Below the pieces are notes generated by a model. It was given only the letters and a program-made list of their open reading frames with translations, ran no database searches and had not been told where the DNA came from. The position numbers and the translations under genes were made by a program. From Bdellovibrionales bacterium (GTDB lineage Bacteria > Bdellovibrionota > Bdellovibrionia > Bdellovibrionales > UBA1609): 64,000 nucleotides of DNA. The stretch spans positions 128,001 through 192,000 of the forward strand of contig CBDHDF010000011.1 of the NCBI GenBank assembly GCA_965261545.1. Reading direction: 5' to 3'. This document shows positions 1,680-31,321 of this stretch, piece after piece; within the stretch, counting starts at the first letter, position 1; the number at the start of each line of letters is the position of its first letter.

Positions 1680-2033
1680 ATGAGTCAAAATAACATAATA
1701 AAACTAACCAAAGGAGGGGCAAGCCATGTGCGAATGTCTCCATCTGAGTATGACAGAATCAAAAAAGATAGTGAAACATCTGGGAAATCCATTCCTGACC
1801 TTTTGAGAGAATCTTATTTCAGTCAACCTCCAAGAAAAGTGCTTGTCGGCAGATCTGATTTAGCTATTTTGAGAAAAGATTTAAATAGAATTGGAAATAA
1901 TCTCAATCAAATTGCCAGAAGGCTCAATGTTGGTCTTATGCATGGATGGAGTGACAAACTGGATTCCGTCTTGGAACAATTTGAAACCCTAACGAATCAA
2001 ATTTACTACGGCTATGGCGTACATAAAAGTTAA
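1680..2033 (+). CDS. mobC: Relaxosome accessory protein MobC
   Basis: LNRIGNNLNQIARRLN signature; AAGGAG RBS; overlaps the relaxase start. Confidence 0.9.
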   Translation: MSQNNIIKLTKGGASHVRMSPSEYDRIKKDSETSGKSIPDLLRESYFSQPPRKVLVGRSDLAILRKDLNRIGNNLNQIARRLNVGLMHGWSDKLDSVLEQFETLTNQIYYGYGVHKS

Positions 2034-3915
2034 ATGGAGGAAGGAGACTCCCAAGGGGAGAGAACTTTCAGCGAAAGACTATGAGAAATATTTACTTAAA
2101 GAAAGAGGAGCTGAGACTGTGACCCATTGCTATCACTGCCTTGAGGGAAGGTCTATTCAACAATTTGAACGTATTCAAGCCCTCTATGGGAAAAACAAAG
2201 CCCGCAGAGGTCAAAGTGTCAATGTGGCTTTTGAGGTGATTCACAGTTTCAGTCCTGAAGAAAGTAGGATTGTGCCTGCGGGGAAGGTCAATCTCATGGG
2301 GGTGACATTGGCAAAACGCTACTTCCCAGACCATGAGTTTGTTGTGGTCACTCATACGGATACCAACAAGACTCATAATCACATCTTGGTCAATCCAGTG
2401 AATGAAAAGACAGGGAAAAGAGATATAACCGACCAAAAAAAACATCTCTACAACCTTCGAACCATTGCTAATGACATTTCAAGAGAAAATGAGCTTTCTA
2501 TCATAAGGCCCACGGGAAAAGAGAAGGCTAGAAATATCCCACAAAAGGTTAAAGAGATTCAACGTAGGGGTGGCCAGTCTTATCGTTTGGACCTTTTCCA
2601 AAAAGCCGATTTTGCCAGAAGCTATGCGACAAGTTTTGATGAATATGTGAGCCTTTTAAACGAACTCTCTGTCAAGGTGGCCATCACTGAAAAGACCATT
2701 ACCTATCATTATGAAGGACATGAAAAGGGAATCAGAGGCAAGAAACTAGGTGCCAACTATGATAAATCGGGCTTGATGGAGAAGTTCAAATCCAATGATG
2801 AGTTGTTTCTAAAACAGCCTCAAGTAAGGAGCAAAATTAGAGATGGAATCAGCAATTTCAAAGATGGAAAAAGAGATTCTTTGGGAGCTTCAAGCCTATT
2901 ATCAATGTTTGGAGGAAATGCACAAAAACTCAATGAAAAAGATTACAAATCTTATACGAAAAGTGATCGTCGTGCTCATAGGACTCCTCTTCCTTCAAAC
3001 GATACTCTTAGTAATTCTATTATACCTATGAGTGAGATAAAAAGAGCCTCAAACAGTGACATTCTGGATTACTGCAAGAAACACAATATAGCCTGCATAG
3101 AAAACAAAAAGGGGGAAACGACTTTAAAGGGACGAGAACACGTTGTCATCCATGGAAATAGATGGACGAACACAAAGAACAAAACCACGGGTTCACTGAT
3201 TGAGCTTGTAAGCCTCCATGAAGACATAAGTTTTTTGGGAGCTATTGCAAAGATCACTGGCAACCAAAATCTTTCCCTTCTTGAACAGCACTTTGGGGAG
3301 GTCAAAAAACCCTACAAGTCCTTTCATATCCCCAAAATAAAAACAGAGTCGCCACACGTTGCAGAAGCCAAAATTAAGCAATTCTTTAGGCACCACAAAA
3401 TCAACGAGGGGCTGGCCGATGATCTTTTCAAACAAAAAAGAGTGCAGATCGATCAAAAAGGCGGCATCTGGTTCTATTCTGATGAGGATCAAAAAGAGGC
3501 TGTCCAGTACACACTGGCCTCGGATAACAGTTACAAGGCTCAATACCACGGGCGACAAAATACTCCATTGATGGAGCCCTCCGCCCATGGGAGTCGTGTC
3601 ACTGTTTATACGGATTTTCTTCACTTTCTGAAGGCTCATGGGAAAAAGGCATTGAGTGGAAAGTCAAAATCCTCTCTTGTCTTGAGAGGCTTGGATGAAC
3701 AAGCTTTTCACATTTTTCTAGCGACAAGGCCACAAATCAAAAGCCTTGAGTTTGTTGACCCTGAAAATAAGGGGCAACAAACCAGTAAGAAAAACCTTTC
3801 TGACAGGAAGGATTTTATGGATCGCCAGAAAAAGCAGCTTGAACCCTTTGATATCTCTGTCTCAACTATTTCCATGGAAAAGGCAATGGCAAGGGATCGT
3901 GGTTTAAGCATATAG
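2014..3915 (+). CDS. MOBP-type relaxase with C-terminal primase-like (DUF3991/Toprim-like) extension
   Basis: Motif II (EVIHSFSPEE) and 3H motif THTDTNKTHNH; C-terminal DILDYC...GSLIELV...SFLGAI region resembles primase-associated domains. Confidence 0.85.
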   Translation: MAYIKVKWRKETPKGRELSAKDYEKYLLKERGAETVTHCYHCLEGRSIQQFERIQALYGKNKARRGQSVNVAFEVIHSFSPEESRIVPAGKVNLMGVTLAKRYFPDHEFVVVTHTDTNKTHNHILVNPVNEKTGKRDITDQKKHLYNLRTIANDISRENELSIIRPTGKEKARNIPQKVKEIQRRGGQSYRLDLFQKADFARSYATSFDEYVSLLNELSVKVAITEKTITYHYEGHEKGIRGKKLGANYDKSGLMEKFKSNDELFLKQPQVRSKIRDGISNFKDGKRDSLGASSLLSMFGGNAQKLNEKDYKSYTKSDRRAHRTPLPSNDTLSNSIIPMSEIKRASNSDILDYCKKHNIACIENKKGETTLKGREHVVIHGNRWTNTKNKTTGSLIELVSLHEDISFLGAIAKITGNQNLSLLEQHFGEVKKPYKSFHIPKIKTESPHVAEAKIKQFFRHHKINEGLADDLFKQKRVQIDQKGGIWFYSDEDQKEAVQYTLASDNSYKAQYHGRQNTPLMEPSAHGSRVTVYTDFLHFLKAHGKKALSGKSKSSLVLRGLDEQAFHIFLATRPQIKSLEFVDPENKGQQTSKKNLSDRKDFMDRQKKQLEPFDISVSTISMEKAMARDRGLSI

Positions 3916-8170: not shown

Positions 8171-8572
8171 ATGGTTGATCCACAAACTATTTTTAACAAC
8201 CTGCCCCCAGAGTCTTCTCCCTTTTGGAATGAGCAATCTCGGAGTCTGGATTACCAACGAATTGCTAAAGACTTTTTTGATGTGGCAGATAGGAAAGAGA
8301 AGATAAGCCAAATCCTTGGTGTAAGTAAAAGCTCTGTACGGTATGACCGTAAGATGCCAAGGGAGGTAAAGGAGTTGTTGCAAGATACTGTAACCATTTT
8401 TCACTTGGTCTATACTCATTTTGGCGAGGATTTTGATAAAACAAAACTTTGGTTTGAACTACCTAACCCTATGATCGGAGAAAACATCACCCCACAACAG
8501 ATGATTTATATTGGGCGACAGCAAAAACTCCTTCAAATTGTTTTTGCAGCGACTCAAGGTGACCGACCCTAG
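8171..8572 (+). CDS. Xre/MbcA/ParS-type antitoxin
   Basis: HTH-like ISQILGVSKSSV plus C-terminal WFELPNPMIG..ITP motif; coupled to the RES gene. Confidence 0.8.
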   Translation: MVDPQTIFNNLPPESSPFWNEQSRSLDYQRIAKDFFDVADRKEKISQILGVSKSSVRYDRKMPREVKELLQDTVTIFHLVYTHFGEDFDKTKLWFELPNPMIGENITPQQMIYIGRQQKLLQIVFAATQGDRP

Positions 8573-9462
8573 TGAGAAGAAAAACGCTACCAATAGGAAG
8601 TTCCGATCCAGAAGTTATGAACCTAGTTCAATCTTCCGATTCAACAAAACAGATTAAAGAAAAGATTGCATTTAAGTACAAGTTTTATTCCGAACTTGTT
8701 CAAAAGAGGTCTGTACTTCAGAAAGAAATCAAAGCATCTCTTGTGTCAAAAATACAAGTGTTTCCTTTTAATGACTGGTGGAGGTTAACTACAACGAAGT
8801 ACTCCATGGACCCTATAAATGCTAGTGGGAGTTACAAAAATCCAATTGGAGGACGCTTCAATGTTGGGCAGATTGATACGACGAATACTGATAAATTCGT
8901 TACATTTCCAGCCCTTTACTTGGCAAAAACAAAGCAAACAGCTATAAAAGAAGTATATCCTCCAATAAAAAAGAAATGCTCACTTTCATCAATGGAGTTG
9001 ATGTTATCTAGCAAAGAGGCAAATGCTTTCTTTAAGGTGAGAGGAGAGGTCCGTGTCTTGGATATTGATAGCCCCAACAATCTAACTGCTTTTGTAAAGG
9101 TCATTAAAAAAATAACGATTGACGCTGACACTGAAAAGGAGGCTCTTAGGCTATCAGAACCTAACCCTCAGACAGTACAAACAGTGAAGGAGCTTAAAAG
9201 GGCTCTATATTCTACTAATTGGAAAAACTTCATAAGTATTTATGATGACCCTCCTCCTTCGCAAATTTTTGGGCAAATTGTAAGGTCTTCTGGAATTGAG
9301 GGGTTATTATACTCATCAATTCATTCTCAAAATAAGCATGATTGTAAGTGCTTAGCTTTATTCTTAGAAAACTTTGAAGACTCGGCTTCTTTTGTAGAAG
9401 TGATTGATTCTGACATTAGCAAAAAAAGAATAGATCAGAACACGTTTAAAGAATTCTTCTAA
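8572..9462 (+). CDS. RES-domain toxin
   Basis: GGRFN, PALYLA...TAIKEV, SQIFG and IEGLLYSS motifs. Confidence 0.82.
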   Translation: MRRKTLPIGSSDPEVMNLVQSSDSTKQIKEKIAFKYKFYSELVQKRSVLQKEIKASLVSKIQVFPFNDWWRLTTTKYSMDPINASGSYKNPIGGRFNVGQIDTTNTDKFVTFPALYLAKTKQTAIKEVYPPIKKKCSLSSMELMLSSKEANAFFKVRGEVRVLDIDSPNNLTAFVKVIKKITIDADTEKEALRLSEPNPQTVQTVKELKRALYSTNWKNFISIYDDPPPSQIFGQIVRSSGIEGLLYSSIHSQNKHDCKCLALFLENFEDSASFVEVIDSDISKKRIDQNTFKEFF

Positions 9463-9749
9463 AAAGTAGAATGGCAAAGACTCTGGGTGAGTTACTAGAA
9501 ATCCTGCATATGCAGGTTGGAACTGGCTAAATCATTGAGATCACTATGAAAATATTGGATTAAAAGGAAGACTTTGGATTTAGAACGCAATCGAATGGCC
9601 GTCTACCAAGTTTGGGTATGATTGACTCCATGGAGCCAATTACTTCGATCTTTCTTAACTTGTCGCTGTCGCGAAATTAAAAAGGGCCGTTTATGTGCCC
9701 TCATTTGGACTTGGGCTCTGAAGTAGCCTCTTTTTAACTTTCCCTTGTT

Positions 9750-11147
9750 CTACCCACCCTTGAAGCTTGGAGTTGGCATCGTCACCGCTAAATTTCTCAT
9801 AATTTGGTGCAGATTGAACCCCATGGTCGAGCGATACCCCGAAGCCAGTGTGGCCCCATCCCCTTTCATCTTGCTTCTTGCTAATCCAAAGTTTTTGACA
9901 TGCCCTATGAGAGGTTCGACCCCCGACCTGCGATTGTATAATTCTTCTTTCTGGGGGGCTTCGACCTGTTCTTTTACGTTGGCAGGTCTTTGAATTCCAT
10001 CTGCATTTCCCACAACATCTTTGACGAGATTGACGTTGGCTTGTGAATAATACCCCTTGTCTGTTGTAACTGACTCTAAAATATCTTCGCCAAATATTTT
10101 TTGATGTTCTTCCAATATAGCTGGCAATGACTCCTTGTCGTCCATTCTCACAGAAGTGCAAGTATAGGGAACAATAAAATTTCCACCAATCCGCCCGACT
10201 TGGAAGACCCTCCCAAACTCCTTGTCTTTGCCTAACTTCCCCTTTTTGATACAGGCGACCGCACACAATTTGAAGGCAAGGATTTTGCCAGGCTTGATGG
10301 TGTGAGTTCTTACAAAATGGGCCACGTCCAAAAGGTATCTCCAAGCCTTGTCTCTCACTTCTGTGACGGCTTCTCGGTGGTTCCAAGGAAGACTCGCTAG
10401 AGCCTGTGGAGAAAGATTTTCTGCAAACCTTATAAAGGCTTTTAACTCTGACTTTACAAGACTGTGAAGGTCTGAAAATACCTCCCTCTTCTTCTCTAAT
10501 ACACAATTTTTGGCTAGAAAAAAATACTTTCGAGCGGCCTTGATGATGGCTTTGATATCTATGGTTATACCCGATGGTAAGTAGGTCTTCTGCTTTTCTT
10601 GAAGATACGAAAGAATTTTGTAACACTTCTGAGCCAACTTTTTCAAAAGACTGGCATCGGAGGGATAAGCCATATTGGCTTCCTGAACGGTCGAATCGAC
10701 ATCCAAATGAGAGGCGTCTGCAAACCCCAGGGATTGAGCCAAGCGAAGAATATAATCTCCTATTTCTTTGTGAGTCTCTTCCGTCAGTCGATTGCGAAAT
10801 TTTTCTATTTTCGTATGATCGGGACAACACCATTTTTTGAGGATATTTAGACCACAAAAAAGCTGATAACTGGCCGTTTCTTTTATCCGTTGCTCCACCC
10901 CTCGATCCGTGAGTTTGAATAGAACCTGAAGCAGCAGCACGGCTAGATGAACTCTTAAAAAGAGCTTTCTTCCTAGCCACCAAAAACCCTTTGCAGTCGT
11001 GGCTTTTAAGTCGGGCATGACCAGACACGACAGATAGCTCCAATCGACGTGGTTGGCCAGTTGAATCAGAGGATCGGATTCTGTGACGATAATAGATACC
11101 TTGGCAGGGTGGACCTTGGTTTCGAGGCCTTCTGGGCATAAACTCAT
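9750..11147 (-). CDS. DDE transposase (ISNCY/IS5-like)
   Basis: PDHTKI, DVDSTVQE, EFG, TDKGY, RSGVEPLIGH motifs. Confidence 0.88.
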   Translation of the reverse strand: MSLCPEGLETKVHPAKVSIIVTESDPLIQLANHVDWSYLSCLVMPDLKATTAKGFWWLGRKLFLRVHLAVLLLQVLFKLTDRGVEQRIKETASYQLFCGLNILKKWCCPDHTKIEKFRNRLTEETHKEIGDYILRLAQSLGFADASHLDVDSTVQEANMAYPSDASLLKKLAQKCYKILSYLQEKQKTYLPSGITIDIKAIIKAARKYFFLAKNCVLEKKREVFSDLHSLVKSELKAFIRFAENLSPQALASLPWNHREAVTEVRDKAWRYLLDVAHFVRTHTIKPGKILAFKLCAVACIKKGKLGKDKEFGRVFQVGRIGGNFIVPYTCTSVRMDDKESLPAILEEHQKIFGEDILESVTTDKGYYSQANVNLVKDVVGNADGIQRPANVKEQVEAPQKEELYNRRSGVEPLIGHVKNFGLARSKMKGDGATLASGYRSTMGFNLHQIMRNLAVTMPTPSFKGG

Positions 11148-11203
11148 AGCGATAATCCTTTATCATGAGGTGAAACATGGTAATAAGGTTAACAGGAGGC
11201 CCA

Positions 11204-11644
11204 ATGAAAAAGAAGCAAATCATTCAACCAAGAAGGAAAGAACTTGAAAAGGCTATTAGTGATTTTTGTGACCAATATATAAACGATGAGTATAAAAACC
11301 TCTGTCACGGTGTAGTAGCAAGAATGTCTCGAAAAAGACAAGTCCCTTACATGACAGGAAGAGTAGAAATTTGGGCTGCGGGGATTATTCATGCCATTGG
11401 GAGAATTAACTTTCTTTATGATAGCAAGACGTCACCATATGTTTCCATGGATGAGATTGTTGAGCACTTCAACACATCAAAAAGGACAGTGGGGCCAAAA
11501 GCAAAAATCATCATGGATATGTGTAAAATGAACCATTTTGACCCAGAATTCTCTACTCGCTATCTTCAGGAGAGGAGTCCATTTAAAAATCTTATGCAAA
11601 TTGAAAATTATATTTATCAAAAAGACCACCTTGAAGCTGAATGA
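11204..11644 (+). CDS. IS passenger protein (DUF6398-like)
   Basis: WAAGIIHAIGRINFLYD...PY motif; AGGAGG RBS; inside the TIRs of both copies. Confidence 0.7.
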   Translation: MKKKQIIQPRRKELEKAISDFCDQYINDEYKNLCHGVVARMSRKRQVPYMTGRVEIWAAGIIHAIGRINFLYDSKTSPYVSMDEIVEHFNTSKRTVGPKAKIIMDMCKMNHFDPEFSTRYLQERSPFKNLMQIENYIYQKDHLEAE

Positions 11645-11808: not shown

Positions 11809-12012
11809 ATGCTCTTTGAAAATTTAGCTTGGTTAACAACTGAAGAAACTGCACGCTATCTTCGCAAAAGCGTCAATGCCATCAGAATTTTGGTATATCG
11901 CAGAATTTTGAGAGCAAGAAAGTTTAGGCGAAGGCTGTATTTTAAAAGAGAAGAGTTGGAGATGCTCATTGAAACCTCACAACATATGGGAGGTTACAAA
12001 TGGCAATTTTAA
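11809..12012 (+). CDS. Excisionase-like HTH protein, copy 2 (short form)
   Basis: Near-identical core to copy 1; overlaps the integrase start. Confidence 0.75.
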   Translation: MLFENLAWLTTEETARYLRKSVNAIRILVYRRILRARKFRRRLYFKREELEMLIETSQHMGGYKWQF

Positions 12013-13166
12013 CTTATGAAAAAAATGGAAAACAGCTTTTCCGAGTCTATGTTCAGGGGCGAGGAAAGGTAGACACTTCTATAAGGGTCCAAAAGAATAA
12101 ATTTAATATAGAGACTCTTAAGGATGCGTGCAAAGAAGAGAAAAGGCTTATTAGAGCTGTTTCAGATGAGATCAATAAGATCGAAGGACGAGGGCTGAAA
12201 TGGAGGGATATCATTTATCGCTGGGAAACCTATGCTTTGCAAGGACTTCTCGGAGATAAACAAAAAGACCCCCATTACATCAAGGACCATGTAAACCGAC
12301 TGCTCCATTATACAAAGCTTTGGCTTGACTGCGTGGCTTCCGAACTCACTAAGGGGGATGGAAGACTTGTCTTGAGTCAGGCGAAAGAAAGTGGAGGCAA
12401 GGAAGGTTCACTAAAAAAAATCAAATCCTCTGTAAATGTAGTCTTCAAGTGGGCTATTGAGGAAAAGCTGGTCGTTGGTGTTCACTCAAGCCCTACTGAG
12501 GGAGTTAATGTTTCAGACAAGGCGGAGAAGGTTCCTAAGATTCTCACCTTAGAAGAGATTAAAACTCTTCTCAAAGGAGCTAAAGAAGAGCAGCATCCTT
12601 GGTATCATATTTGGTCTTTTGCATTTCTTACTGGAATGAGAAGTGGCGAATTGAAGGCATTGCAGTGGAAGGATATTGATTTTGACCGACAAACAATATT
12701 GGTCTCCAAGTCCTACAGCCATCGCAAGCGAGTGATAAAGTGCACCAAAGCTGGTCACTGGCGAAATGTACCCATTTCCAATGACCTTCTGAAGATCATC
12801 ACTGAACTTCAGAGAGATAGTCATTGTGACCCTGAAGGCTTTGTCCTTCCAAGACATGGGACATGGACCAATGGTGAAGCCGGAAAGGTTTTGAGGACAT
12901 TCCTAAAGAAATATAACATAAATCAGCATGTTGTATTTCATACACTCAGAGCCTGTTTTGCGACCCATATGTTGGCTCAAGGGGTCAATCAGGCCACCGT
13001 TATGAAAATTGGTGGATGGAGAGATATTAAGACTTTCCAAATCTACGTTCGGCTCGGTGGGATTGAGGTCAAAGGTGCAACAGAGGTTTTGCAAGTGATT
13101 CCAACCCTTGACTCTCTCGCTCCTAAAGACAATGTAATCGGCTTTCCTTGGCACAAGGGCATATGA
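12000..13166 (+). CDS. Tyrosine integrase copy 2 (intact)
   Basis: R (TGMRSGE), K (CTKAG), HTLR, W (GGW) and Y (FQIY) catalytic residues present. Confidence 0.93.
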   Translation: MAILTYEKNGKQLFRVYVQGRGKVDTSIRVQKNKFNIETLKDACKEEKRLIRAVSDEINKIEGRGLKWRDIIYRWETYALQGLLGDKQKDPHYIKDHVNRLLHYTKLWLDCVASELTKGDGRLVLSQAKESGGKEGSLKKIKSSVNVVFKWAIEEKLVVGVHSSPTEGVNVSDKAEKVPKILTLEEIKTLLKGAKEEQHPWYHIWSFAFLTGMRSGELKALQWKDIDFDRQTILVSKSYSHRKRVIKCTKAGHWRNVPISNDLLKIITELQRDSHCDPEGFVLPRHGTWTNGEAGKVLRTFLKKYNINQHVVFHTLRACFATHMLAQGVNQATVMKIGGWRDIKTFQIYVRLGGIEVKGATEVLQVIPTLDSLAPKDNVIGFPWHKGI

Positions 13167-13887
13167 AACAGTAAAATAATTCTTCAGTTGAGAGATGCCT
13201 TTGGCATTTCTCAACATTTCTTAATGTTTGCTAACCATTGCTAAGTAGGTTAACTTAAACTACTGAAATTAATGGAAACTTTGACTAATTTATTCGACGC
13301 AATGCGTTTCGGTGTCTCTTATGGGCACCAATAGGCCGTATGTATGTAAAATAAATGGATTAAGGAGATCATCCATCATTTTTCTAGACCCTTTTTGAAA
13401 AACCGTTTTGCCAAAGGTTTAACTTTATTTGTGTCCCCTAGGCCGACAGATAATACTTTGAGTAACTTCTGAAATAATTTATTCATCGTATCGTTAGGAA
13501 AGGTAGAGTTACTAATAGAAAACATACAAAGCCGCTAAGATGGCCCTGCGCATTATGAAATCTTTGCGAAATTGGATGCATCCTTTCTTCAATATGTGTT
13601 GTGTGGAATATTAGGATATAACAATTTTCTGGCTTGATATATGGAGAACCTATACAAACTGCTAAATGGCGCTGTGAGTTATGAAGTTTCTGAAATATTT
13701 ACATGAGCTTTCTCTTAATCTTTTGTCCGGAATTAGGTTAATGAACTGCGTATCTAAAAGAAACTTGGAATAGCAGCCCCACCATGTATTGATTAAAGTC
13801 ACCAAAAACTAACAAGTAATTGAGCAATCATAAAAAATCTAGCTGTAGATTAAATTCTACCTGAATTTGAATACTAAGGAAAAGAAT

Positions 13888-14115
13888 ATGGAAAATATCG
13901 ATATCACTTTAATTTCTAGAATATGTACAATCTTATCTTTTCCGATAGCTCTCTTATCTTTTCTGATAGCCCTCTTATCCCACTGTACTTCAAGAAAAAA
14001 TAAAAGAGATATTGTAAACATAAAAAGCTCTATAAAGAACATAGACAGCTCAGCAACTAATATCTCAGTTCGTGGAAATAAGAATACTACAGCAGGAAGA
14101 AATATTGATGAATAA
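13888..14115 (+). CDS. Small single-TM protein with N/G/T-rich C-terminal tail; first gene of the ABC-3C operon
   Basis: TAAGGA RBS before ATG 13888; hydrophobic ICTILSFPIALLSFLIALLS; stop overlaps next ATG by 8 nt. Confidence 0.7.
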   Translation: MENIDITLISRICTILSFPIALLSFLIALLSHCTSRKNKRDIVNIKSSIKNIDSSATNISVRGNKNTTAGRNIDE

Positions 14116-14668
14116 TAATACGATAAATATAAATGGCAACAATAATATTGTTGCCGGTGGAGATATAATAGTAAAGAACATCCAAAGATTACCTTCTCTA
14201 CTAGGTTCAATACTACCATCCTTAATTGAAGCCATAGATACTTTTGATGAGTCTAAACAGCCTCCATCTAAGCCATATGAAATTGATAACAAGATAAATT
14301 TTAATAATTTATACGTTTATAAAAATTCGATAGAAAAATATGGTCTATTTGGAAATATTATAGATTCAATAATGGAAAATTTAGATACGTCAAAGCCAAT
14401 GTCGAAGAAGAAAATTTTTAGATATCTTGAAAAAAAATATGTAGATACAATAGCTAATTTAAACCTGAATAACCAATCTAAAATTGAAATTATAAAAATC
14501 AAGTCCGACGATATATTCAAAAAAACCATGTCGCAAATTAACGATGACCTGAAGGGAGCTGATACCGGAGATGTATCAATGGAAGACCTGGAAATTTGTA
14601 TTTTAGTTATTACATGTTATGGATTCATAAATTGTAAAATAATGGAGAATGTACCTGATGATTATTGA
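14108..14668 (+). CDS. ABC-three-component CTD protein (LmuA-like) with no enzymatic effector domain
   Basis: PYEIDNKINFNNL and C-terminal F..CKIME motifs resemble ABC-3C CTDs; precedes the middle component and ATPase. Confidence 0.7.
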   Translation: MNNNTININGNNNIVAGGDIIVKNIQRLPSLLGSILPSLIEAIDTFDESKQPPSKPYEIDNKINFNNLYVYKNSIEKYGLFGNIIDSIMENLDTSKPMSKKKIFRYLEKKYVDTIANLNLNNQSKIEIIKIKSDDIFKKTMSQINDDLKGADTGDVSMEDLEICILVITCYGFINCKIMENVPDDY

Positions 14669-14897
14669 TAGAGATGTTCATCCAGATAGAAATCTTTTCC
14701 ATATAGGGGCAAGAGTACTTCAATTAATTAAAGAACATCAATTTGGTGTTATACCAATGATGGATTTGTTTGAAAGAACTAAAAATGTATTAGAGTGCTC
14801 TATTTCATTTGATGATTTCATACTTTCTCTCGATTGGCTCTTTATATTAGGGACAATAGATTCTAATGAAACAGGGGATATTATACGATGTTTTTAA
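14658..14897 (+). CDS. ABC-three-component middle component (MC6/LmuC-like)
   Basis: HPDRNLFHIGARVL...FILSLDWLFILGTI pattern; ~79 aa, overlapping both neighbours. Confidence 0.75.
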   Translation: MIIDRDVHPDRNLFHIGARVLQLIKEHQFGVIPMMDLFERTKNVLECSISFDDFILSLDWLFILGTIDSNETGDIIRCF

Positions 14898-16570
14898 GCA
14901 GACTCATTGTTCAAAAAGGTGAAAGAATAATTCAAGATATTCCCTTCAAGAGAGGGTTAAACCTAATCATAGATGAAACTCCAACTGCTAATAAAAAATC
15001 TGGAAATAATGTTGGAAAAACTACTATGGTTAGAGTCATTGATTACTGTTTAGGTGGGAAATGTGAAAAAATATATAAAGATCGAGAAACTAACACAGAA
15101 AACAAAGAGGTTAAGAAATTTCTACAATCTTCTCAAGTTCGAATTAAGTTGTTTTTAGAAGAAGCAAAGGATGGTCAATTACACGAAATTATTCGTTCAT
15201 ATGGAGAAAAATCAATCATAAATGGAGAGGAAAAAACAGAAAATGAATTTAAACAAGATCTGAATCAAATATTATTTCGATTAGATGTAAGTAAACCTTC
15301 ATCAAGAGAATTACTTGGTAAATTTATTCGAACTGAGAATTACCAGTTAGATAATATCTATAAATTCTTATATCCTCAAACTAAAAGACCAAAAGATGTT
15401 TACGAATACATCTATCTGTACCTATTTGGATTTCAAAATCATAAGGCTACTATAAGAAAAAATGATCTTAATGAAAATATAAAAAAAATAATTGATCGTG
15501 TTAAAGCTCTATCTCCTTACAAAGAAGGTGCTTTGACTCAGATTATTCGGGCTCTTGACACAGATATTAATATATTTGAGAAAAAATTAAAAAATTTTGA
15601 GATATCAAACTCACATAAAGAAAATCTTGAATCTTTAAAAGAAATAAGGGGAGAAATTTCTCAGCTATCTGTAAATATAAGCAATATAGATATCCAAATT
15701 AAATTAAATAATCAAACACTTAAGAATCTTGAAAAGACAAGATCATCTATTGATCCAAAACTTCTTCACAATATATATGATCAAGCAAATGCTTATGTCG
15801 AAACTCTTCAGAAAAGCTTTGAGGAGGCTCTGGATTTTCATAATTCAATGATTAGAAATAAAATGAATTTTGTTAATAAACATTTGTCATCTTTGATTCA
15901 AAATCGAAACAAAATGAAAGAAAGAATGGATATATTTTTTGAAGAGGAAAGAAAATTTCTAAGGGAATTATCTAGCAAAGGTGCTTTGGATGATTTAATT
16001 AAATGCAACCAAGAACTCTCATCACTAAAAGAGAAGAGGGGAGAAAAAAATGGCATTTTAAAAGAAAAAAAAGAATTAGAAGAAGAGCTAAACCAATACA
16101 ATGAAGAACTAAAAAACATAAATAATAAAATGTTGGAGTTTAAAGGCCGATTAGACAAAGAACTTGAAGATTTTAATACCCTATATAGAAAAATAACAAA
16201 GGAACTATATGACGAAGAATATATTTTTTCTTGTGAAATTGATAGAAATAGTAGGTATGATTTCTCATTATCAACCATGCATGGAACTGTTGGATCAGGG
16301 AAGAAAAAAGGACAGATATTAGCCTTTGATTTAGCGTATTTAAACTTTTTAGAGAAAAAAGAAGCAAATATATGTAGATTTCAAATCAATGATCGCCTTG
16401 AAGAGGTTCATTTAAACCAATTAAAGAGAGCTTTTGAGATTGCAAATAATATTGATGGGCAATTCATTGTTCCGATTCTTAGAGATAGAATTGAAGCCTT
16501 GGGTAAAGACTATATTCAAGAAAATAAGATCATTACTCTTTCACAAGAACAAAAGTTTTTTAAATTATAA
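14888..16570 (+). CDS. SMC/SbcC-like ABC ATPase (DUF2326, LmuB-like)
   Basis: Walker A GNNVGKTT, long coiled coil, GSGKKKGQILAFDLAY signature, INDRLE Walker B-like segment. Confidence 0.85.
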   Translation: MFLSRLIVQKGERIIQDIPFKRGLNLIIDETPTANKKSGNNVGKTTMVRVIDYCLGGKCEKIYKDRETNTENKEVKKFLQSSQVRIKLFLEEAKDGQLHEIIRSYGEKSIINGEEKTENEFKQDLNQILFRLDVSKPSSRELLGKFIRTENYQLDNIYKFLYPQTKRPKDVYEYIYLYLFGFQNHKATIRKNDLNENIKKIIDRVKALSPYKEGALTQIIRALDTDINIFEKKLKNFEISNSHKENLESLKEIRGEISQLSVNISNIDIQIKLNNQTLKNLEKTRSSIDPKLLHNIYDQANAYVETLQKSFEEALDFHNSMIRNKMNFVNKHLSSLIQNRNKMKERMDIFFEEERKFLRELSSKGALDDLIKCNQELSSLKEKRGEKNGILKEKKELEEELNQYNEELKNINNKMLEFKGRLDKELEDFNTLYRKITKELYDEEYIFSCEIDRNSRYDFSLSTMHGTVGSGKKKGQILAFDLAYLNFLEKKEANICRFQINDRLEEVHLNQLKRAFEIANNIDGQFIVPILRDRIEALGKDYIQENKIITLSQEQKFFKL

Positions 16571-18795: not shown

Positions 18796-18999
18796 ATGCT
18801 CTTTGACAATTTAGCTTGGTTAACAACTGAAGAAACTGCACGCTATCTTCGCAAAAGCGTCAATGCCATCAGGATTTTGGTATATCGCAAAATTCTGAGA
18901 GCAAGGAAGTTTAGGCGAAGGCTGTATTTCAAAAGAGAAGAGTTGGAGATGCTCATTGAAACCTCACAACATATGGGAGGTTACAAATGGCAATTTTAA
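18796..18999 (+). CDS. Excisionase-like HTH protein, copy 3
   Basis: Near-identical to copies 2 and 4. Confidence 0.75.
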   Translation: MLFDNLAWLTTEETARYLRKSVNAIRILVYRKILRARKFRRRLYFKREELEMLIETSQHMGGYKWQF

Positions 19000-20150
19000 C
19001 TTATGAAAAAAATGGAAAACAGCTTTTCCGAGTCTATGTTCAGGGGCGAGGAAAGGTAGACACTTCTATAAGGGTCCAAAAGAATAAATTTAATATAGAG
19101 ACTCTTAAGGATGCGTGCAAAGAAGAGAAAAGGCTTATTAGAGCTGTTTCAGATGAGATCAATAAGATCGAAGGACGAGGGCTGAAATGGAGGGATATCA
19201 TTTATCGCTGGGAAACCTATGCTTTGCAAGGACTTCTCGGAGATAAACAAAAAGACCCCCATTACATCAAGGACCATGTAAACCGACTGCTCCATTATAC
19301 AAAGCTTTGGCTTGACTGCGTGGCTTCCGAACTCACTAAGGGGGATGGAAGACTTGTCTTGAGTCAGGCGAAAGAAAGTGGAGGCAAGGAAGGTTCACTA
19401 AAAAAAATCAAATCCTCTGTAAATGTAGTCTTCAAGTGGGCTATTGAGGAAAAGCTGGTCGTTGGTGTTCACTCAAGCCCTACTGAGGGAGTTAATGTTT
19501 CAGACAAGGCGGAGAAGGTTCCTAAGATTCTCACCTTAGAAGAGATTAAAACTCTTCTCAAAGGAGCTAAAGAAGAGCAGCATCCTTGGTATCATATTTG
19601 GTCTTTTGCATTTCTTACTGGAATGAGAAGTGGCGAATTGAAGGCATTGCAGTGGAAGGATATTGATTTTGATCGACAAACAATATTGGTCTCCAAGTCC
19701 TACAGCCATCGTAAGCGAGTGATAAAATGCACTAAAGCTGGTTACTGGCGAAACGTACCCATTTCCAGTGACCTTTTGAAGATTATCACCGAGCTTCAGA
19801 AAGATGGTCACTGTGACCCTGAAGGCTTTGTCCTTCCAAGGCATGGGACATGGACCAATGGTGAAGCTGGAAAGGTTTTGAGAGCATTTCTAAAGAAATA
19901 TAACATAAATCAACATGTTGTATTTCACACACTCAGGGCTTGCTTTGCGACTCACATGTTAGCTCATGGGGTAAATCAAGCCACCGTTATGAAAATCGGT
20001 GGCTGGAGAGACATTAAGACTTTCCAGATCTACCTTCGGCTTGCTGGGGTTGAGGTCAAAGGCGCAACAGAGGTGTTGCAAGTGATTCCAACTATTGACT
20101 CTCTCGTTCCTAAAAACAATGTGATCGACTTTCCTTTGGCGCAAGGTTAA
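18987..20150 (+). CDS. Tyrosine integrase copy 3 (intact)
   Basis: All catalytic motifs present; one amino-acid difference seen versus copy 4. Confidence 0.93.
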   Translation: MAILTYEKNGKQLFRVYVQGRGKVDTSIRVQKNKFNIETLKDACKEEKRLIRAVSDEINKIEGRGLKWRDIIYRWETYALQGLLGDKQKDPHYIKDHVNRLLHYTKLWLDCVASELTKGDGRLVLSQAKESGGKEGSLKKIKSSVNVVFKWAIEEKLVVGVHSSPTEGVNVSDKAEKVPKILTLEEIKTLLKGAKEEQHPWYHIWSFAFLTGMRSGELKALQWKDIDFDRQTILVSKSYSHRKRVIKCTKAGYWRNVPISSDLLKIITELQKDGHCDPEGFVLPRHGTWTNGEAGKVLRAFLKKYNINQHVVFHTLRACFATHMLAHGVNQATVMKIGGWRDIKTFQIYLRLAGVEVKGATEVLQVIPTIDSLVPKNNVIDFPLAQG

Positions 20151-20572: not shown

Positions 20573-22438
20573 TTACATAGGCGTCCTCACAAGGCGGAAA
20601 CCGACACCGTACCAGCGAAAATCAGGCCGATCGAAGGAACGATAGGAAGAGCGCAGGAAGCGAGCGCCGTCGTCCCAACCGCCACCACGCATAACACGGG
20701 TAGAGCCATTTTTCGGACCTCTAGGGTCTGTGACAGGACCAAAATCATACCAAGGTTTAGAATACTCCTCCTCCTCATACCAATCTTCGACCCACTCCCA
20801 CACATTTCCATGAACATCATAAAGCCCTAGGGGATTGGAGCTCAACAATGCCACGGACCTTGATTGTCGGCTTTGTTTGCCAGATCCAGAGTTCCCCCTA
20901 TACCAACCATAGTTTTTAAGTTCTGAAGGATTGTCACCAAAGGAATAGGCTGTTTTTGTGCCTGCTTTTGCACCACCCCTGGCTGCAAATTCCCACTCCG
21001 CTTCCGTAGGCAAACGGTATTCATATTTGTCACCGTGGGACTCTCTCGCCCTGCGATTGTACTCATTTATAAATTCTTGGACGTCCTCCCAAGACACTCT
21101 CTCCACAGGATGATCGGCGCACATTGAAACTCCATCTTGTTCCATATAACTTTCTGGGCAATGCTCTTTTTCTTGGAATTTTGAAGGATTTGTCCCCATC
21201 ACAACAAACCACTGCCATTGAGTCACCTCTGTGGTGCTTATTTCAAAGGGCTTAGAAATTGTTACTTTATGAGGGGTCTCATCTGAATCTCGACCTTTTT
21301 CAGTCTTAGGGCTCCCCATGGTGAAAGAACCTGCGGACACGGGGACAAAACCATATTGAGACAAGCTTCGTCTCACATAGGCTCTCAACACACTGTATTC
21401 AATACCTGTTTTGTCTTTTGAATAAAGACGTGTATTCATCCGAGGGCTTCCTATCACTTCATCCACCAAGCTTTCAATGACTCCGTTAAGAACTCTCACG
21501 GCAGAAGCAAACTCCTGCTTGCTGTCAATTTTTGAGTCAAGTTCTTCAAGGTTTTTTCTTAAGGCAGCTAATTGTTTTATAAGAGATCCTGCATTTTCTT
21601 CTCCATAGGCGTCTATGAACTTTTCTATGCCTGAGACCTTTTCCTTGGCCTCATCTCTTTGTCGAACGAGGTCATGGACACTGGGAGCTTCCATGCCCTC
21701 TTTATAGGCTTTGACCTGCCGAGCCTCTTTGGGACTTAGGGTAGGAAGCTCATTAACTCTTAGCACGGATTGAAGGCGACGCTTAAAGTCACTCACGGGG
21801 ACTTTTTTTATAAGTGCACCATCGGGCCGCTGGCAATCACTCACCTCATTTATAACAGAACCCACTTCACACTCTTGGATCACAATCTTATCTTCTCCTT
21901 GGTGGCTTTTTTCTTTATAAAATAAAATCACATCACCATCGGGGCCTACAAGATTCACAGAAGAGGGCCTTCTTTTGTCACCCCTCTTATCACTATCACC
22001 TCTTTTCGTACCATGAGGACGAGATCCACGAGGTCCGCTGTGGGAACCATGGCCACCATGGGAACTATAATGACCTTGGAAGCCAGATCCATGGGGTAAC
22101 TGGAGTCGGCCTCCTGATTTTAGGGTGATTCGCCTCATCTTTTCTTCATGCTTACGAACCACAGCCTTGTAGGAGGCGGTACGGTCTTCTGGTGTAGATG
22201 ATGTAGATAGAGGTAGAGGTGCAGGTAGAGGTGCAGAAGAGTCCCTTGATGGATTTGTATGATTCTGATTCTGGTTCTGATTCAGACCTTTGTCTTGACT
22301 CTCTCGGCTCTCTTTGCCCTCTTGGCTCACTCGGCCCTCTTTGCTCAAAAAGGCACATGAAGGCAGAACCATCAACAGTGACAATAACCACAAAAGCAAT
22401 AAAGGTCTCATGGACCTTATGGGTTTCATTCCTTTCAT
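20573..22438 (-). CDS. Lipoprotein with C-terminal FGE-sulfatase (CLec-fold) domain; candidate DGR target
   Basis: Signal peptide ending LMVLPSC; FTMGSP, EVTQ, HPVERVSW, RLPTEAEWEFAARGG, GLYDVHGNVWEW, RGGGW, GFRLV; AAAGGAG RBS before ATG 22438. Confidence 0.88.
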   Translation of the reverse strand: MKGMKPIRSMRPLLLLWLLSLLMVLPSCAFLSKEGRVSQEGKESRESQDKGLNQNQNQNHTNPSRDSSAPLPAPLPLSTSSTPEDRTASYKAVVRKHEEKMRRITLKSGGRLQLPHGSGFQGHYSSHGGHGSHSGPRGSRPHGTKRGDSDKRGDKRRPSSVNLVGPDGDVILFYKEKSHQGEDKIVIQECEVGSVINEVSDCQRPDGALIKKVPVSDFKRRLQSVLRVNELPTLSPKEARQVKAYKEGMEAPSVHDLVRQRDEAKEKVSGIEKFIDAYGEENAGSLIKQLAALRKNLEELDSKIDSKQEFASAVRVLNGVIESLVDEVIGSPRMNTRLYSKDKTGIEYSVLRAYVRRSLSQYGFVPVSAGSFTMGSPKTEKGRDSDETPHKVTISKPFEISTTEVTQWQWFVVMGTNPSKFQEKEHCPESYMEQDGVSMCADHPVERVSWEDVQEFINEYNRRARESHGDKYEYRLPTEAEWEFAARGGAKAGTKTAYSFGDNPSELKNYGWYRGNSGSGKQSRQSRSVALLSSNPLGLYDVHGNVWEWVEDWYEEEEYSKPWYDFGPVTDPRGPKNGSTRVMRGGGWDDGARFLRSSYRSFDRPDFRWYGVGFRLVRTPM

Positions 22439-22655
22439 TTTTTGATCTCCTTTCATTTTTTGCTTTGGCGGCACTTTACTTAACTCTTGCCCTCTTTAGC
22501 CATTGACTTGAAGCCATAAACTCACCCACTATCTGAACAACCTTAGCCTCATTGACTCAAGCCTACCTACTTGACTTTACTTATGTCACTGAGTGATTGT
22601 CGATACAAAATAGTACAAACTTGAATTCCTAGACTTTGCGAGGACTCCACTGACA

Positions 22656-23957: not shown

Positions 23958-24161
23958 ATGCTCTTTGACAATTTAGCTTGGTTAACAACTGAAGAAACTG
24001 CACGCTATCTTCGCAAAAGCGTTAATGCCATCAGGATTCTGGTATATCGCAGAATTTTGAGGGCAAGAAAGTTTAGGCGAAGGCTGTATTTCAAAAGAGA
24101 AGAGTTGGATATGCTCATTGAAACCTCACAACATATGGGAGGTTACAAATGGCAATTTTAA
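23958..24161 (+). CDS. Excisionase-like HTH protein, copy 4
   Basis: Near-identical to copies 2 and 3. Confidence 0.75.
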   Translation: MLFDNLAWLTTEETARYLRKSVNAIRILVYRRILRARKFRRRLYFKREELDMLIETSQHMGGYKWQF

Positions 24162-25312
24162 CTTATGAAAAAAATGGAAAACAGCTTTTCCGAGTCTATG
24201 TTCAGGGGCGAGGAAAGGTAGACACTTCTATAAGGGTCCAAAAGAATAAATTTAATATAGAGACTCTTAAGGATGCGTGCAAAGAAGAGAAAAGGCTTAT
24301 TAGAGCTGTTTCAGATGAGATCAATAAGATCGAAGGACGAGGGCTGAAATGGAGGGATGTCATTTATCGCTGGGAAACCTATGCTTTGCAAGGACTTCTC
24401 GGAGATAAACAAAAAGACCCCCATTACATCAAGGACCATGTAAACCGACTGCTCCATTATACAAAGCTTTGGCTTGACTGCGTGGCTTCCGAACTCACTA
24501 AGGGGGATGGAAGACTTGTCTTGAGTCAGGCGAAAGAAAGTGGAGGCAAGGAAGGTTCACTAAAAAAAATCAAATCCTCTGTAAATGTAGTCTTCAAGTG
24601 GGCTATTGAGGAAAAGCTGGTCGTTGGTGTTCACTCAAGCCCTACTGAGGGAGTTAATGTTTCAGACAAGGCGGAGAAGGTTCCTAAGATTCTCACCTTA
24701 GAAGAGATTAAAACTCTTCTCAAAGGAGCTAAAGAAGAGCAGCATCCTTGGTATCATATTTGGTCTTTTGCATTTCTTACTGGAATGAGAAGTGGCGAAT
24801 TGAAGGCATTGCAGTGGAAGGATATTGATTTTGATCGACAAACAATATTGGTCTCCAAGTCCTACAGCCATCGTAAGCGAGTGATAAAATGCACTAAAGC
24901 TGGTTACTGGCGAAACGTACCCATTTCCAGTGACCTTTTGAAGATTATCACCGAGCTTCAGAAAGATGGTCACTGTGACCCTGAAGGCTTTGTCCTTCCA
25001 AGGCATGGGACATGGACCAATGGTGAAGCTGGAAAGGTTTTGAGAGCATTTCTAAAGAAATATAACATAAATCAACATGTTGTATTTCACACACTCAGGG
25101 CTTGCTTTGCGACTCACATGTTAGCTCATGGGGTAAATCAAGCCACCGTTATGAAAATCGGTGGCTGGAGAGACATTAAGACTTTCCAGATCTACCTTCG
25201 GCTTGCTGGGGTTGAGGTCAAAGGCGCAACAGAGGTGTTGCAAGTGATTCCAACTATTGACTCTCTCGTTCCTAAAAACAATGTGATCGACTTTCCTTTG
25301 GCGCAAGGTTAA
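24149..25312 (+). CDS. Tyrosine integrase copy 4 (intact)
   Basis: All catalytic motifs present; nearly identical to copy 3. Confidence 0.93.
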   Translation: MAILTYEKNGKQLFRVYVQGRGKVDTSIRVQKNKFNIETLKDACKEEKRLIRAVSDEINKIEGRGLKWRDVIYRWETYALQGLLGDKQKDPHYIKDHVNRLLHYTKLWLDCVASELTKGDGRLVLSQAKESGGKEGSLKKIKSSVNVVFKWAIEEKLVVGVHSSPTEGVNVSDKAEKVPKILTLEEIKTLLKGAKEEQHPWYHIWSFAFLTGMRSGELKALQWKDIDFDRQTILVSKSYSHRKRVIKCTKAGYWRNVPISSDLLKIITELQKDGHCDPEGFVLPRHGTWTNGEAGKVLRAFLKKYNINQHVVFHTLRACFATHMLAHGVNQATVMKIGGWRDIKTFQIYLRLAGVEVKGATEVLQVIPTIDSLVPKNNVIDFPLAQG

Positions 25313-29367: not shown

Positions 29368-29808
29368 TCATTCAGCTTCAAGGTGGTCTTTTTGATAAAT
29401 ATAATTTTCAATTTGCATAAGATTTTTAAATGGACTCCTCTCCTGAAGATAGCGAGTAGAGAATTCTGGGTCAAAATGGTTCATTTTACACATATCCATG
29501 ATGATTTTTGCTTTTGGCCCCACTGTCCTTTTTGATGTGTTGAAGTGCTCAACAATCTCATCCATGGAAACATATGGTGACGTCTTGCTATCATAAAGAA
29601 AGTTAATTCTCCCAATGGCATGAATAATCCCCGCAGCCCAAATTTCTACTCTTCCTGTCATGTAAGGGACTTGTCTTTTTCGAGACATTCTTGCTACTAC
29701 ACCGTGACAGAGGTTTTTATACTCATCGTTTATATATTGGTCACAAAAATCACTAATAGCCTTTTCAAGTTCTTTCCTTCTTGGTTGAATGATTTGCTTC
29801 TTTTTCAT
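29368..29808 (-). CDS. IS passenger protein (DUF6398-like), copy 2
   Basis: Identical protein to 11204-11644. Confidence 0.7.
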   Translation of the reverse strand: MKKKQIIQPRRKELEKAISDFCDQYINDEYKNLCHGVVARMSRKRQVPYMTGRVEIWAAGIIHAIGRINFLYDSKTSPYVSMDEIVEHFNTSKRTVGPKAKIIMDMCKMNHFDPEFSTRYLQERSPFKNLMQIENYIYQKDHLEAE

Positions 29809-31321
29809 TGGGCCTCCTGTTAACCTTATTACCATGTTTCACCTCATGATAAAGGATTATCGCTATGAGTTTATGCCCAGAAGGCCTCGAAACCAAGGTC
29901 CACCCTGCCAAGGTATCTATTATCGTCACAGAATCCGATCCTCTGATTCAACTGGCCAACCACGTCGATTGGAGCTATCTGTCGTGTCTGGTCATGCCCG
30001 ACTTAAAAGCCACGACTGCAAAGGGTTTTTGGTGGCTAGGAAGAAAGCTCTTTTTAAGAGTTCATCTAGCCGTGCTGCTGCTTCAGGTTCTATTCAAACT
30101 CACGGATCGAGGGGTGGAGCAACGGATAAAAGAGACGGCCAGTTATCAGCTTTTTTGTGGTCTAAATATCCTCAAAAAATGGTGTTGTCCCGATCATACG
30201 AAAATAGAAAAATTTCGCAATCGACTGACGGAAGAGACTCACAAAGAAATAGGAGATTATATTCTTCGCTTGGCTCAATCCCTGGGGTTTGCAGACGCCT
30301 CTCATTTGGATGTCGATTCGACCGTTCAGGAAGCCAATATGGCTTATCCCTCCGATGCCAGTCTTTTGAAAAAGTTGGCTCAGAAGTGTTACAAAATTCT
30401 TTCGTATCTTCAAGAAAAGCAGAAGACCTACTTACCATCGGGTATAACCATAGATATCAAAGCCATCATCAAGGCCGCTCGAAAGTATTTTTTTCTAGCC
30501 AAAAATTGTGTATTAGAGAAGAAGAGGGAGGTATTTTCAGACCTTCACAGTCTTGTAAAGTCAGAGTTAAAAGCCTTTATAAGGTTTGCAGAAAATCTTT
30601 CTCCACAGGCTCTAGCGAGTCTTCCTTGGAACCACCGAGAAGCCGTCACAGAAGTGAGAGACAAGGCTTGGAGATACCTTTTGGACGTGGCCCATTTTGT
30701 AAGAACTCACACCATCAAGCCTGGCAAAATCCTTGCCTTCAAATTGTGTGCGGTCGCCTGTATCAAAAAGGGGAAGTTAGGCAAAGACAAGGAGTTTGGG
30801 AGGGTCTTCCAAGTCGGGCGGATTGGTGGAAATTTTATTGTTCCCTATACTTGCACTTCTGTGAGAATGGACGACAAGGAGTCATTGCCAGCTATATTGG
30901 AAGAACATCAAAAAATATTTGGCGAAGATATTTTAGAGTCAGTTACAACAGACAAGGGGTATTATTCACAAGCCAACGTCAATCTCGTCAAAGATGTTGT
31001 GGGAAATGCAGATGGAATTCAAAGACCTGCCAACGTAAAAGAACAGGTCGAAGCCCCCCAGAAAGAAGAATTATACAATCGCAGGTCGGGGGTCGAACCT
31101 CTCATAGGGCATGTCAAAAACTTTGGATTAGCAAGAAGCAAGATGAAAGGGGATGGGGCCACACTGGCTTCGGGGTATCGCTCGACCATGGGGTTCAATC
31201 TGCACCAAATTATGAGAAATTTAGCGGTGACGATGCCAACTCCAAGCTTCAAGGGTGGGTAGAACAAGGGAAAGTTAAAAAGAGGCTACTTCAGAGCCCA
31301 AGTCCAAATGAGGGCACATAA
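29789..31321 (+). other. Overprinted stop-free reading frame across the type-A transposase (also at 9691-11223, minus strand)
   Basis: 510 codons without a stop in the -1 frame on the same strand; transposase codons avoid T before AA/AG/GA-initial codons. Confidence 0.55.
29865..31262 (+). CDS. DDE transposase (ISNCY/IS5-like), copy 2
   Basis: Identical protein to 9750-11147. Confidence 0.88.
   Translation: MSLCPEGLETKVHPAKVSIIVTESDPLIQLANHVDWSYLSCLVMPDLKATTAKGFWWLGRKLFLRVHLAVLLLQVLFKLTDRGVEQRIKETASYQLFCGLNILKKWCCPDHTKIEKFRNRLTEETHKEIGDYILRLAQSLGFADASHLDVDSTVQEANMAYPSDASLLKKLAQKCYKILSYLQEKQKTYLPSGITIDIKAIIKAARKYFFLAKNCVLEKKREVFSDLHSLVKSELKAFIRFAENLSPQALASLPWNHREAVTEVRDKAWRYLLDVAHFVRTHTIKPGKILAFKLCAVACIKKGKLGKDKEFGRVFQVGRIGGNFIVPYTCTSVRMDDKESLPAILEEHQKIFGEDILESVTTDKGYYSQANVNLVKDVVGNADGIQRPANVKEQVEAPQKEELYNRRSGVEPLIGHVKNFGLARSKMKGDGATLASGYRSTMGFNLHQIMRNLAVTMPTPSFKGG

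Follow-up and report, generated by a model that had tools for sequence, protein, structure and literature searches.

We analyzed a 64,000-nucleotide stretch (the window) of contig CBDHDF010000011.1 from a Bdellovibrionales bacterium, in which four overlapping genes at 13888-16570 on the forward strand form a short Lamassu/ABC-3C operon, as judged by sequence, open reading frames (ORFs), and Pfam. The operon encodes a small membrane protein, an LmuA consisting of little more than its C-terminal domain (CTD), LmuC, and the SMC-like ATPase LmuB (Table 1). A sequence-only reading had proposed a split effector, whose two parts are joined by paired amyloid-like motifs at the C-terminus of the membrane protein and the N-terminus of LmuA. 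Its coordinates and sequences for the 75-aa single-transmembrane ORF and for the CTD ORF were reproduced exactly. The membrane-protein gene and lmuA overlap by 8 nt, with lmuA in the +1 frame. Both the sequence and an AlphaFold2 (AF2) model leave only ~27 residues ahead of the CTD, so LmuA carries no N-terminal enzyme, as that reading had also stated.

Table 1 Features of the operon and of the element directly upstream (SD, Shine-Dalgarno; positions in the window).
Feature	Position	Strand	Basis
SD-like TAAGGA, membrane-protein gene	13875..13880	+	sequence; AAGGA 7 nt ahead of ATG
Putative effector, 75 aa: one hydrophobic helix, basic linker, C-terminal motif	13888..14115	+	hydropathy, AF2
Predicted transmembrane helix, residues ~12-31, then K/R-rich stretch	13921..13980	+	hydropathy scan
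Effector-side motif, residues 59-73, ISVRGNKNTTAGRNI	14062..14106	+	local alignment
SD-like AGGAAG of lmuA, within effector gene, 8 nt ahead of ATG 14108	14094..14099	+	sequence
Effector-less LmuA, 186 aa: 20-residue N/G/I-rich head and CTD10	14108..14668	+	Pfam, relatives' alignment, AF2
LmuA-side motif, residues 6-20, ININGNNNIVAGGDI	14123..14167	+	local alignment
LmuC, ABC-3C middle component 6, 79 aa; alternative ATG start at 14649	14658..14897	+	Pfam MC6
LmuB, short SMC-like ABC ATPase, 560 aa, no CxxC hook	14888..16570	+	Pfam, PADLOC
HTH_17 protein and tyrosine integrase, directly upstream of operon	11809..13166	+	Pfam

The Lamassu/ABC-3C identity given in the sequence-only reading is borne out by LmuC and LmuB, which score above the Pfam cut-offs for MC6 (E=1.2e-17) and DUF2326 (E=2.4e-14), respectively. 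At 560 aa, LmuB is near the ~600 aa of short type II Lamassu ATPases, and it also matches AAA_23 and, in PADLOC, the PDC-M68B (E=1.5e-41) and LmuB (E=1.6e-16) models; PADLOC returned no match for the other three operon proteins. The ATPase contains a variant Walker A (SGNNVGKT, residues 38-45), a variant Walker B (FQINDR, residues 498-503), and a signature-like GSGKKK at residue 469, and the strict Walker A Gx4GK[S/T] and Walker B hhhhD[Q/S/T/E] patterns of PMC12663957 are unmatched. Since an enzyme-fused relative (locus L001) has the same kind of variants, TGNNIGKT and FILNDK, LmuB does not appear obviously degenerate. Against Pfam CTD10, the CTD of LmuA scores E=1.3e-4, which falls short of the curated cut-off, and 112 of its 128 aligned relatives match CTD10 at E≤0.01. 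The PDC-M68A model is weakly matched by 14 of these 128 (best E=2e-5). The two closest structural matches to the AF2 model of LmuA (predicted local distance difference test score, pLDDT, 92) are both LmuA proteins: 9nxx_A (Z 7.3, root-mean-square deviation 4.3, 137 aligned) ranks first and 9hqx_A (Z 6.9, root-mean-square deviation 4.2, 122 aligned) second among 48,161 chains.

Other searches with the operon proteins were less informative. Sequence searches against solved structures gave no relevant match, a word-indexed protein search with the CTD found only the query itself, and a single-protein locus scan with LmuB found nothing. There was no tblastn match for the CTD in plasmids or for LmuB in phages, and LmuB was not found in the 40 related genomes searched. 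Foldseek with the CTD returned nothing at E≤0.001. Its best row, at E=0.014, was PDB 9a6c chain B, the Bacillus subtilis YydB in a YydD-YydB model, which hints that the YydD-YydB operon could be an ABC-3C relative.

The best local alignment between the effector tail and the LmuA head, ISVRGNKNTTAGRNI against ININGNNNIVAGGDI, has 7/15 identical residues and a BLOSUM62 score of 38. Taken alone, this match in the window is suggestive only; the alignment offered in the sequence-only reading is real, and it rises beyond chance only in the family comparison described below. The motifs contain about 18% N, 15% G, and 17–18% I+V, with <1% P and 0.5–3% L, in agreement with the description of BASS motifs as ~20–25 aa segments rich in N, Q, G, V, and I and poor in P and L. 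In the AF2 model of the 75-aa protein, a helix spans residues 4–54 and the tail has pLDDT<50. Neither motif has secondary structure in the monomer models. A complex prediction with 3+3 copies of the motif segments scored 0.02, and, run without controls, speaks neither for nor against binding.

We then surveyed effector-less CTDs and their neighbors. Using phmmer over 1.84 billion representatives, we obtained 244 matches at E≤0.001, and 144 of the 150 matches listed were ≤225 aa. By an ad hoc composition rule, a head rich in N, G, and beta-branched residues was present in 113 of 140 listed matches of 165–225 aa versus 146 of 2,120 long ORFs from the window's own genome. For gene context, viral, genome, and metagenome collections were scanned with degenerate DNA patterns for the CTD C-terminus. 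These patterns are independent of the LmuA head and of the upstream gene, the metagenome pattern is tuned toward short CTDs, and full flanks were taken for 80 loci each from the genome and metagenome scans, so that locus counts represent samples. The resulting 258 loci gave 255 CTD hits, comprising 63 short, 100 long, and 92 truncated. An adjacent upstream membrane-protein ORF, taken as a hydrophobic ORF whose end lies between -45 and +40 nt relative to the CTD gene start, accompanied 58 of the 63 short CTDs. On manual reading, the five without a partner were broken-frame records (L002, L058, L149, and L193) or lay at a contig end (L208), so the pairing is obligate. At loci with enzyme-fused LmuA (SMEK or HNH type, spot-checked), a short hydrophobic ORF occurred at 4 of 89 distinct loci, and none was N/G-tailed. 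Short-CTD loci fetched later had a partner in 10/10 cases (9 distinct); four of the ten were found in 400 Bacteroidota genomes by a profile search that used no DNA pattern. The remaining later loci were two long ones without a partner, one spurious hit, and one locus without a CTD. Other upstream genes are not conserved, with 1 cross-locus homologue pair among 44 ORFs. In 28 of the 30 non-redundant pairs described below, an LmuC-sized ORF is present, and the other 2 are cut by contig ends. At one locus (L003:1183-1788), the database annotation begins LmuA 51 codons too late and the motif is lost; such start mis-calls may have hidden the system.

For the statistics, two partners were moved to a longer ORF, and L158 (partner cut) and L256 (a copy of the window locus) were removed, leaving 56 pairs. 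These were reduced to 30 pairs at <60% CTD identity and 22 pairs at <50%. The C-terminal 35 residues of every membrane protein were scored against the LmuA heads. The mean score was 53.8 for the own head versus 26.3 for other heads among the 30 pairs, a mean reached by 0 of 100,000 permutations. The own head ranked first in 20/30 and in the top three in 25/30; in the stricter set it ranked first in 16/22. Composition shuffles were beaten at p<0.01 by 25 of the 30 pairs. The preference persists within LmuB clades: 63.9 own versus 45.8 other (n=11, 0/20,000 permutations), 42.3 versus 23.5 (n=9, 0/20,000), and 55.6 versus 39.7 (n=5, 193/20,000). At the later loci, the own head ranked 1, 3, 1, 1, 1, 1, 3, 3, 7, and 3 against the earlier 30 heads. 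Tail and head evolve together, because shared locus ancestry cannot favor a protein's own head over that of its sister. The motifs at effector-less loci are thus conserved as pairs and change together, both across the 30 pairs and within LmuB clades, as the sequence-only reading had anticipated, and this paired co-variation strongly supports, at the level of sequence, a coupling between the two motifs.

The match is also maintained at the protein level, since codon sharing is not in excess: the same codon is used at 134 of 307 identical motif residues versus 147.7 expected from local codon use. Pooled over 12 close pairs, which share members and are not independent, dN/dS (nonsynonymous to synonymous substitution rate) is 0.17 for the effector (0.18 for its motif) and 0.14 for the CTD body (0.36 for the LmuA motif); purifying selection acts on both motifs. 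In the 30 pairs, gene offsets range from -23 to +13 nt, with frames of +1 (17), +2 (12), and 0 (1). Neither the 150 representatives nor the 162 complete CTD hits yielded a helix-CTD fusion; hydropathy had flagged 1 and 2 of them, respectively, and these were inspected. A search for longer proteins matching the effector alignment, a weak search with 8,000 candidates scored, gave one 158-aa hit without a CTD. The pair is not the product of a frameshift, because offsets vary, no fused form was found among these proteins, there is no codon duplication signal, and purifying selection acts. The homologues are accordingly not one fused ORF, and the label of a split effector is figurative, as no fused ancestor was seen. 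On a 49-row LmuB tree, two changes are required to account for the motif label, and two Bacteroidota motif systems lie within an HNH group (support 99/98). The tree is drawn with midpoint rooting and does not give the direction of change. Its shape fits a history in which nuclease effectors and the motif-plus-partner module were exchanged for each other.

The membrane partners fall by eye, on hydropathy, into at least three types: one helix in 56–84 aa, as in the window; two close helices in ~80 aa, the E. coli type; and two spaced helices in 98–108 aa. None reached a curated cut-off in Pfam or NCBIfam, and the window protein also has no match in PADLOC. PHROGs matches were to families of unknown function or to one unnamed membrane protein, and ESM Atlas returned solely unnamed clusters of 73–79 aa with low recognition. 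The holin-like toxin model Hol_Tox was weakly matched by 4 of 31 effectors, at E 0.014–0.1, below cut-off. By the positive-inside rule, the basic flank of a membrane helix is cytoplasmic. Across the 30 pairs, Lys and Arg residues average 3.6 after the helix versus 0.7 before it, which would place the tail in the cytoplasm with LmuA; the effector C-terminus is therefore probably cytoplasmic. At these lengths, with one or two hydrophobic helices, there is no room for a helical bundle, and a distant kinship of the first helix to the Bell/HeLo helix is possible. In one relative (L016:1699-1947), the effector linker contains a poly-Asn run of >20 residues that is much shorter in a close relative (L164), a variable repeat beside the motif.

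In CTD7 Lamassu, LmuB2C keeps LmuA monomeric, and its release leads to a CTD-mediated tetramer (PMC12663957; bioRxiv 2025.03.14.643221; bioRxiv 2025.06.23.660979). The CTD-driven LmuA oligomerization assumed in the sequence-only reading is thus documented for that type (PMC12663957; bioRxiv 2025.03.14.643221). For NLR/Bell and Bab/Agp pairs, the published proposal is that a receptor oligomer nucleates the N-terminal amyloid motif, which converts the C-terminal motif of the effector (bioRxiv 2020.01.06.895854; 2024.11.07.622273). By homology with other Lamassu, in which this is established, LmuB2-LmuC of the window would grip monomeric LmuA at its CTD and sense phage DNA ends or replication intermediates. 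Freed LmuA would oligomerize through its CTD, as shown for CTD7 and supposed here for CTD10, clustering several N-terminal motifs. This cluster could then nucleate a cross-beta stack, to which the membrane protein is recruited through its matching C-terminal motif, and the hydrophobic helices would cluster or insert, breaking the inner membrane and aborting infection. In this scheme, CTD10 oligomerization, signal direction, membrane killing, and defense are drawn from analogy with these systems, and the amyloid nature of the motifs is suggested by their layout and composition. It is very probable that the two motifs couple directly, with the membrane protein being the output. We give a probability of about 0.62 to the full amyloid model, in which the motif replaces the LmuA enzyme domain and templates a separate small membrane protein. 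That the window operon represents a widespread, undescribed Lamassu branch with amyloid templating as the link to its effectors, in which an SMC-type DNA sensor frees an adaptor, the CTD oligomer of this adaptor nucleates a prion-like fold, and the fold recruits interchangeable minimal membrane killers of at least three seemingly unrelated types, also seems to us somewhat favored.

Several observations weigh against the amyloid model. The structural likeness to LmuA is modest, with Z ~7 in the range common for helical folds, and the LmuA tetramer is known for CTD7, whereas the window family is CTD10. At 56–108 aa, the effectors lack a Bell/HeLo-like sheath or a visible auto-inhibitory domain. 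Five of the 30 pairs, the window's included, fail the composition shuffles at p<0.01; in the window, shuffles of the LmuA head reached the score of 38 in 128 of 10,000 cases (p ~0.013), and the pair is among the weaker ones, its own head ranking 2nd of 30. Flanks of just 1.5–2.5 kb per locus also leave room for a distant partner gene. Lastly, the curated amyloid-motif models Pfam RHIM, PP/Ses_B, and HET-s were unmatched in 128 CTDs (E≤0.01) and 30 effectors (E≤0.05). This last result, together with the shortness of the motifs (15–25 aa), would suit a finite, non-propagating beta-zipper or beta-solenoid, in which an LmuA oligomer would assemble a pore from a few membrane proteins with no amyloid amplification, and all of the co-variation results fit such a complex equally well. 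We nevertheless consider it rather unlikely, as length, composition, terminal position, and gene layout are as in experimentally proven amyloid pairs, and motifs without secondary structure in AF2 monomers are expected if they fold on assembly.

The missing auto-inhibitory domain and the weak Hol_Tox scores could also point to a reverse logic, in which the LmuA head is an antitoxin or guard of a toxic membrane protein that is set free when the complex senses its trigger or is destroyed; matching motifs signify contact, not direction. Alternatively, the membrane protein might be a mere tether of Lamassu to the membrane, the output lying elsewhere. Such arrangements appear quite improbable, given that the N-terminus of known Lamassu LmuA is an output turned on by oligomerization, that the two sequences are alike rather than complementary, as in like-on-like stacking, and that the neighborhood holds no further conserved candidate for an effector gene. 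An artefact or decay, whether a frameshifted gene, the remnant of a tandem duplication, or a chance Asn-rich likeness, is largely refuted and retains only a very slight probability. Both segments are Asn-rich, the operon is AT-rich, and the window pair by itself is subject to the p-value given above, yet offsets and frames vary across 30 lineages with no fused form, shared codons are not in excess, purifying selection acts, and own-partner specificity exceeds that for other N/G-rich heads. Contigs from four public runs (four studies) also span the E. coli-type junction with no listed indel.

Named records of the family come from Pseudomonadota, Bacillota, Bacteroidota, and Actinomycetota, and include prophages and plasmids. 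In phylum-sample profile searches, centers excluded, motif-type systems were found in at least 1, at least 0, at least 0, and at least 4 of 400 genomes; the first-look filter was loose, and the counts are lower bounds. One subtype occurs in 17 of 5,426 complete E. coli genomes, and the one case examined lies in a lambdoid prophage between replication genes and hokD. A four-gene operon of the E. coli prophage type is present in NZ_CP147046.1 (locus tags WAZ55_RS08175 to RS08165). Contigs assembled from RNA runs cover the E. coli-type locus, from which transcription is not deducible. In Clostridium botulinum, plasmids NZ_CP013844.1, NZ_CP102910.1, and NZ_CP102914.1 encode a short CTD covering 95% of a motif-type query beside MC6 and DUF2326, and these loci probably represent the same system.

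The operon has a GC content of 28% versus 40% for the window, and it looks like the cargo of the HTH_17-integrase element directly upstream. A promoter scan gave 16 sites versus 21.5 expected, none of them ahead of the operon. Modules of HTH_17 and tyrosine integrase, ~95% identical, are found at 11809-13166, 18796-20150, and 23958-25312, with different cargo behind each copy. Broken copies lie near 4772 and 7240, further copies occur on contigs C2, C5, and C10, and a second family is 60% identical; together they look like an expanding family of integrative elements or transposons. Behind the second integrase, the cargo is a lipoprotein-like protein of 633 aa whose C-terminal domain is of the FGE-sulfatase type (20573-22474, reverse strand). 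At 8171-9462, a 133-aa protein is followed by a RES-domain protein (RES by Pfam), a layout we take to be an Xre/RES-type toxin-antitoxin pair, the first gene presumably being of the Xre family. Relaxase, large serine recombinase, and Fic-domain genes are located at 2014-3915, 49054-51114, and 52342-53334. The window is also dense in insertion sequence (IS) elements of ISL3, IS256, IS21, and IS4/5 types; in both copies of one element (9691-11223, reverse strand, and 29789-31321, forward strand), a 465-aa transposase is overlapped by an open frame of 510 aa that lies on its own strand.

The coupling proposed here gives a concrete answer to a question raised by published work, namely how a Lamassu clade that keeps LmuB and LmuC intact but has no effector might function. 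It would also add SMC-type DNA sensors to the NLR and TPR-GreA-PIN receptors of amyloid signaling. If the amyloid model is true, this would be the first amyloid signaling under an ABC/SMC ATPase sensor, with membrane effectors smaller than any others known from such pairs, and the motif would act as a plug-in slot for effectors, exchanged with HNH nucleases in the course of evolution. Amyloid-type templating also drives some fungal and animal cell-death pathways, which provides a parallel. The co-varying natural pairs form a ready specificity series for heterotypic amyloid recognition, and the E. coli prophage subtype makes the model directly testable in a laboratory strain.

We found no published account of an amyloid-coupled Lamassu, ABC-3C, LmuA, or DUF2326 system in a search that covered material other than supplements, subscription papers, and Krishnan 2020. 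By term look-up, neither Lamassu nor ABC nor SMC is mentioned in a paper on detecting amyloid motifs (PMC12261475) or in a review from 2026 (PMC13506858). The PADLOC candidate PDC-M68, to which LmuB shows the likeness noted above, is a two-model candidate, and "M68" is absent from the main text of its source preprint (bioRxiv 2024.01.29.577857). The nearest described group is Clade O, a short Lamassu with a short LmuB, an intact LmuC, and an LmuA that has "seemingly lost the effector domain" (Haudiquet et al. 2025, PMC12663957), all of which are also features of the window operon. Clade O comprises >100 sequences from >40 species, and no explanation is given for the loss (PMC12663957). Its main text includes no upstream gene, membrane protein, "transmembrane," or "amyloid," though the supplement could differ. 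From this shared architecture we infer that the window family corresponds to Clade O, and the motif-coupled system probably explains it. On our LmuB tree, the motif-type systems do not form a single group.

Type II Lamassu/ABC-3C systems with fused SMEK, HNH, or other nucleases share CTD10, MC6, DUF2326, and the gene order. Their enzyme is fused to the LmuA N-terminus, whereas the window LmuA has no such fused effector domain and instead has a fourth gene in front that shares the LmuA motif. The terminal motif pairs, the overlapping collinear genes, and the N/G/V/I-rich, P/L-poor composition are common to the window operon and to the Bell/NLR pairs with BASS1-10 (bioRxiv 2020.01.06.895854), HET-S/NWD2, and RHIM. 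Bell/NLR receptors are NACHT or NB-ARC proteins, whereas the window motif sits on a CTD10 protein and no NLR domain is present in the operon; Bell/NLR hosts are filamentous bacteria, and hosts of the window family are not so limited. Bab/Agp of E. coli, with BASS11, is located in prophage defense hotspots and, like the window operon, combines a small membrane-targeting protein bearing a ~20-aa C-terminal motif with a larger defense protein, encoded next to it, that matches at its N-terminus (bioRxiv 2024.11.07.622273). Its sensor is TPR-GreA/B-PIN and its effector is Bell-like and helical, in contrast to the SMC-like ATPase, the motif-bearing adaptor, and the bare one- or two-helix effectors of 56–108 aa in the window family. 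The window system is thus a real variant that joins two known kinds, Lamassu and the amyloid signaling pair.

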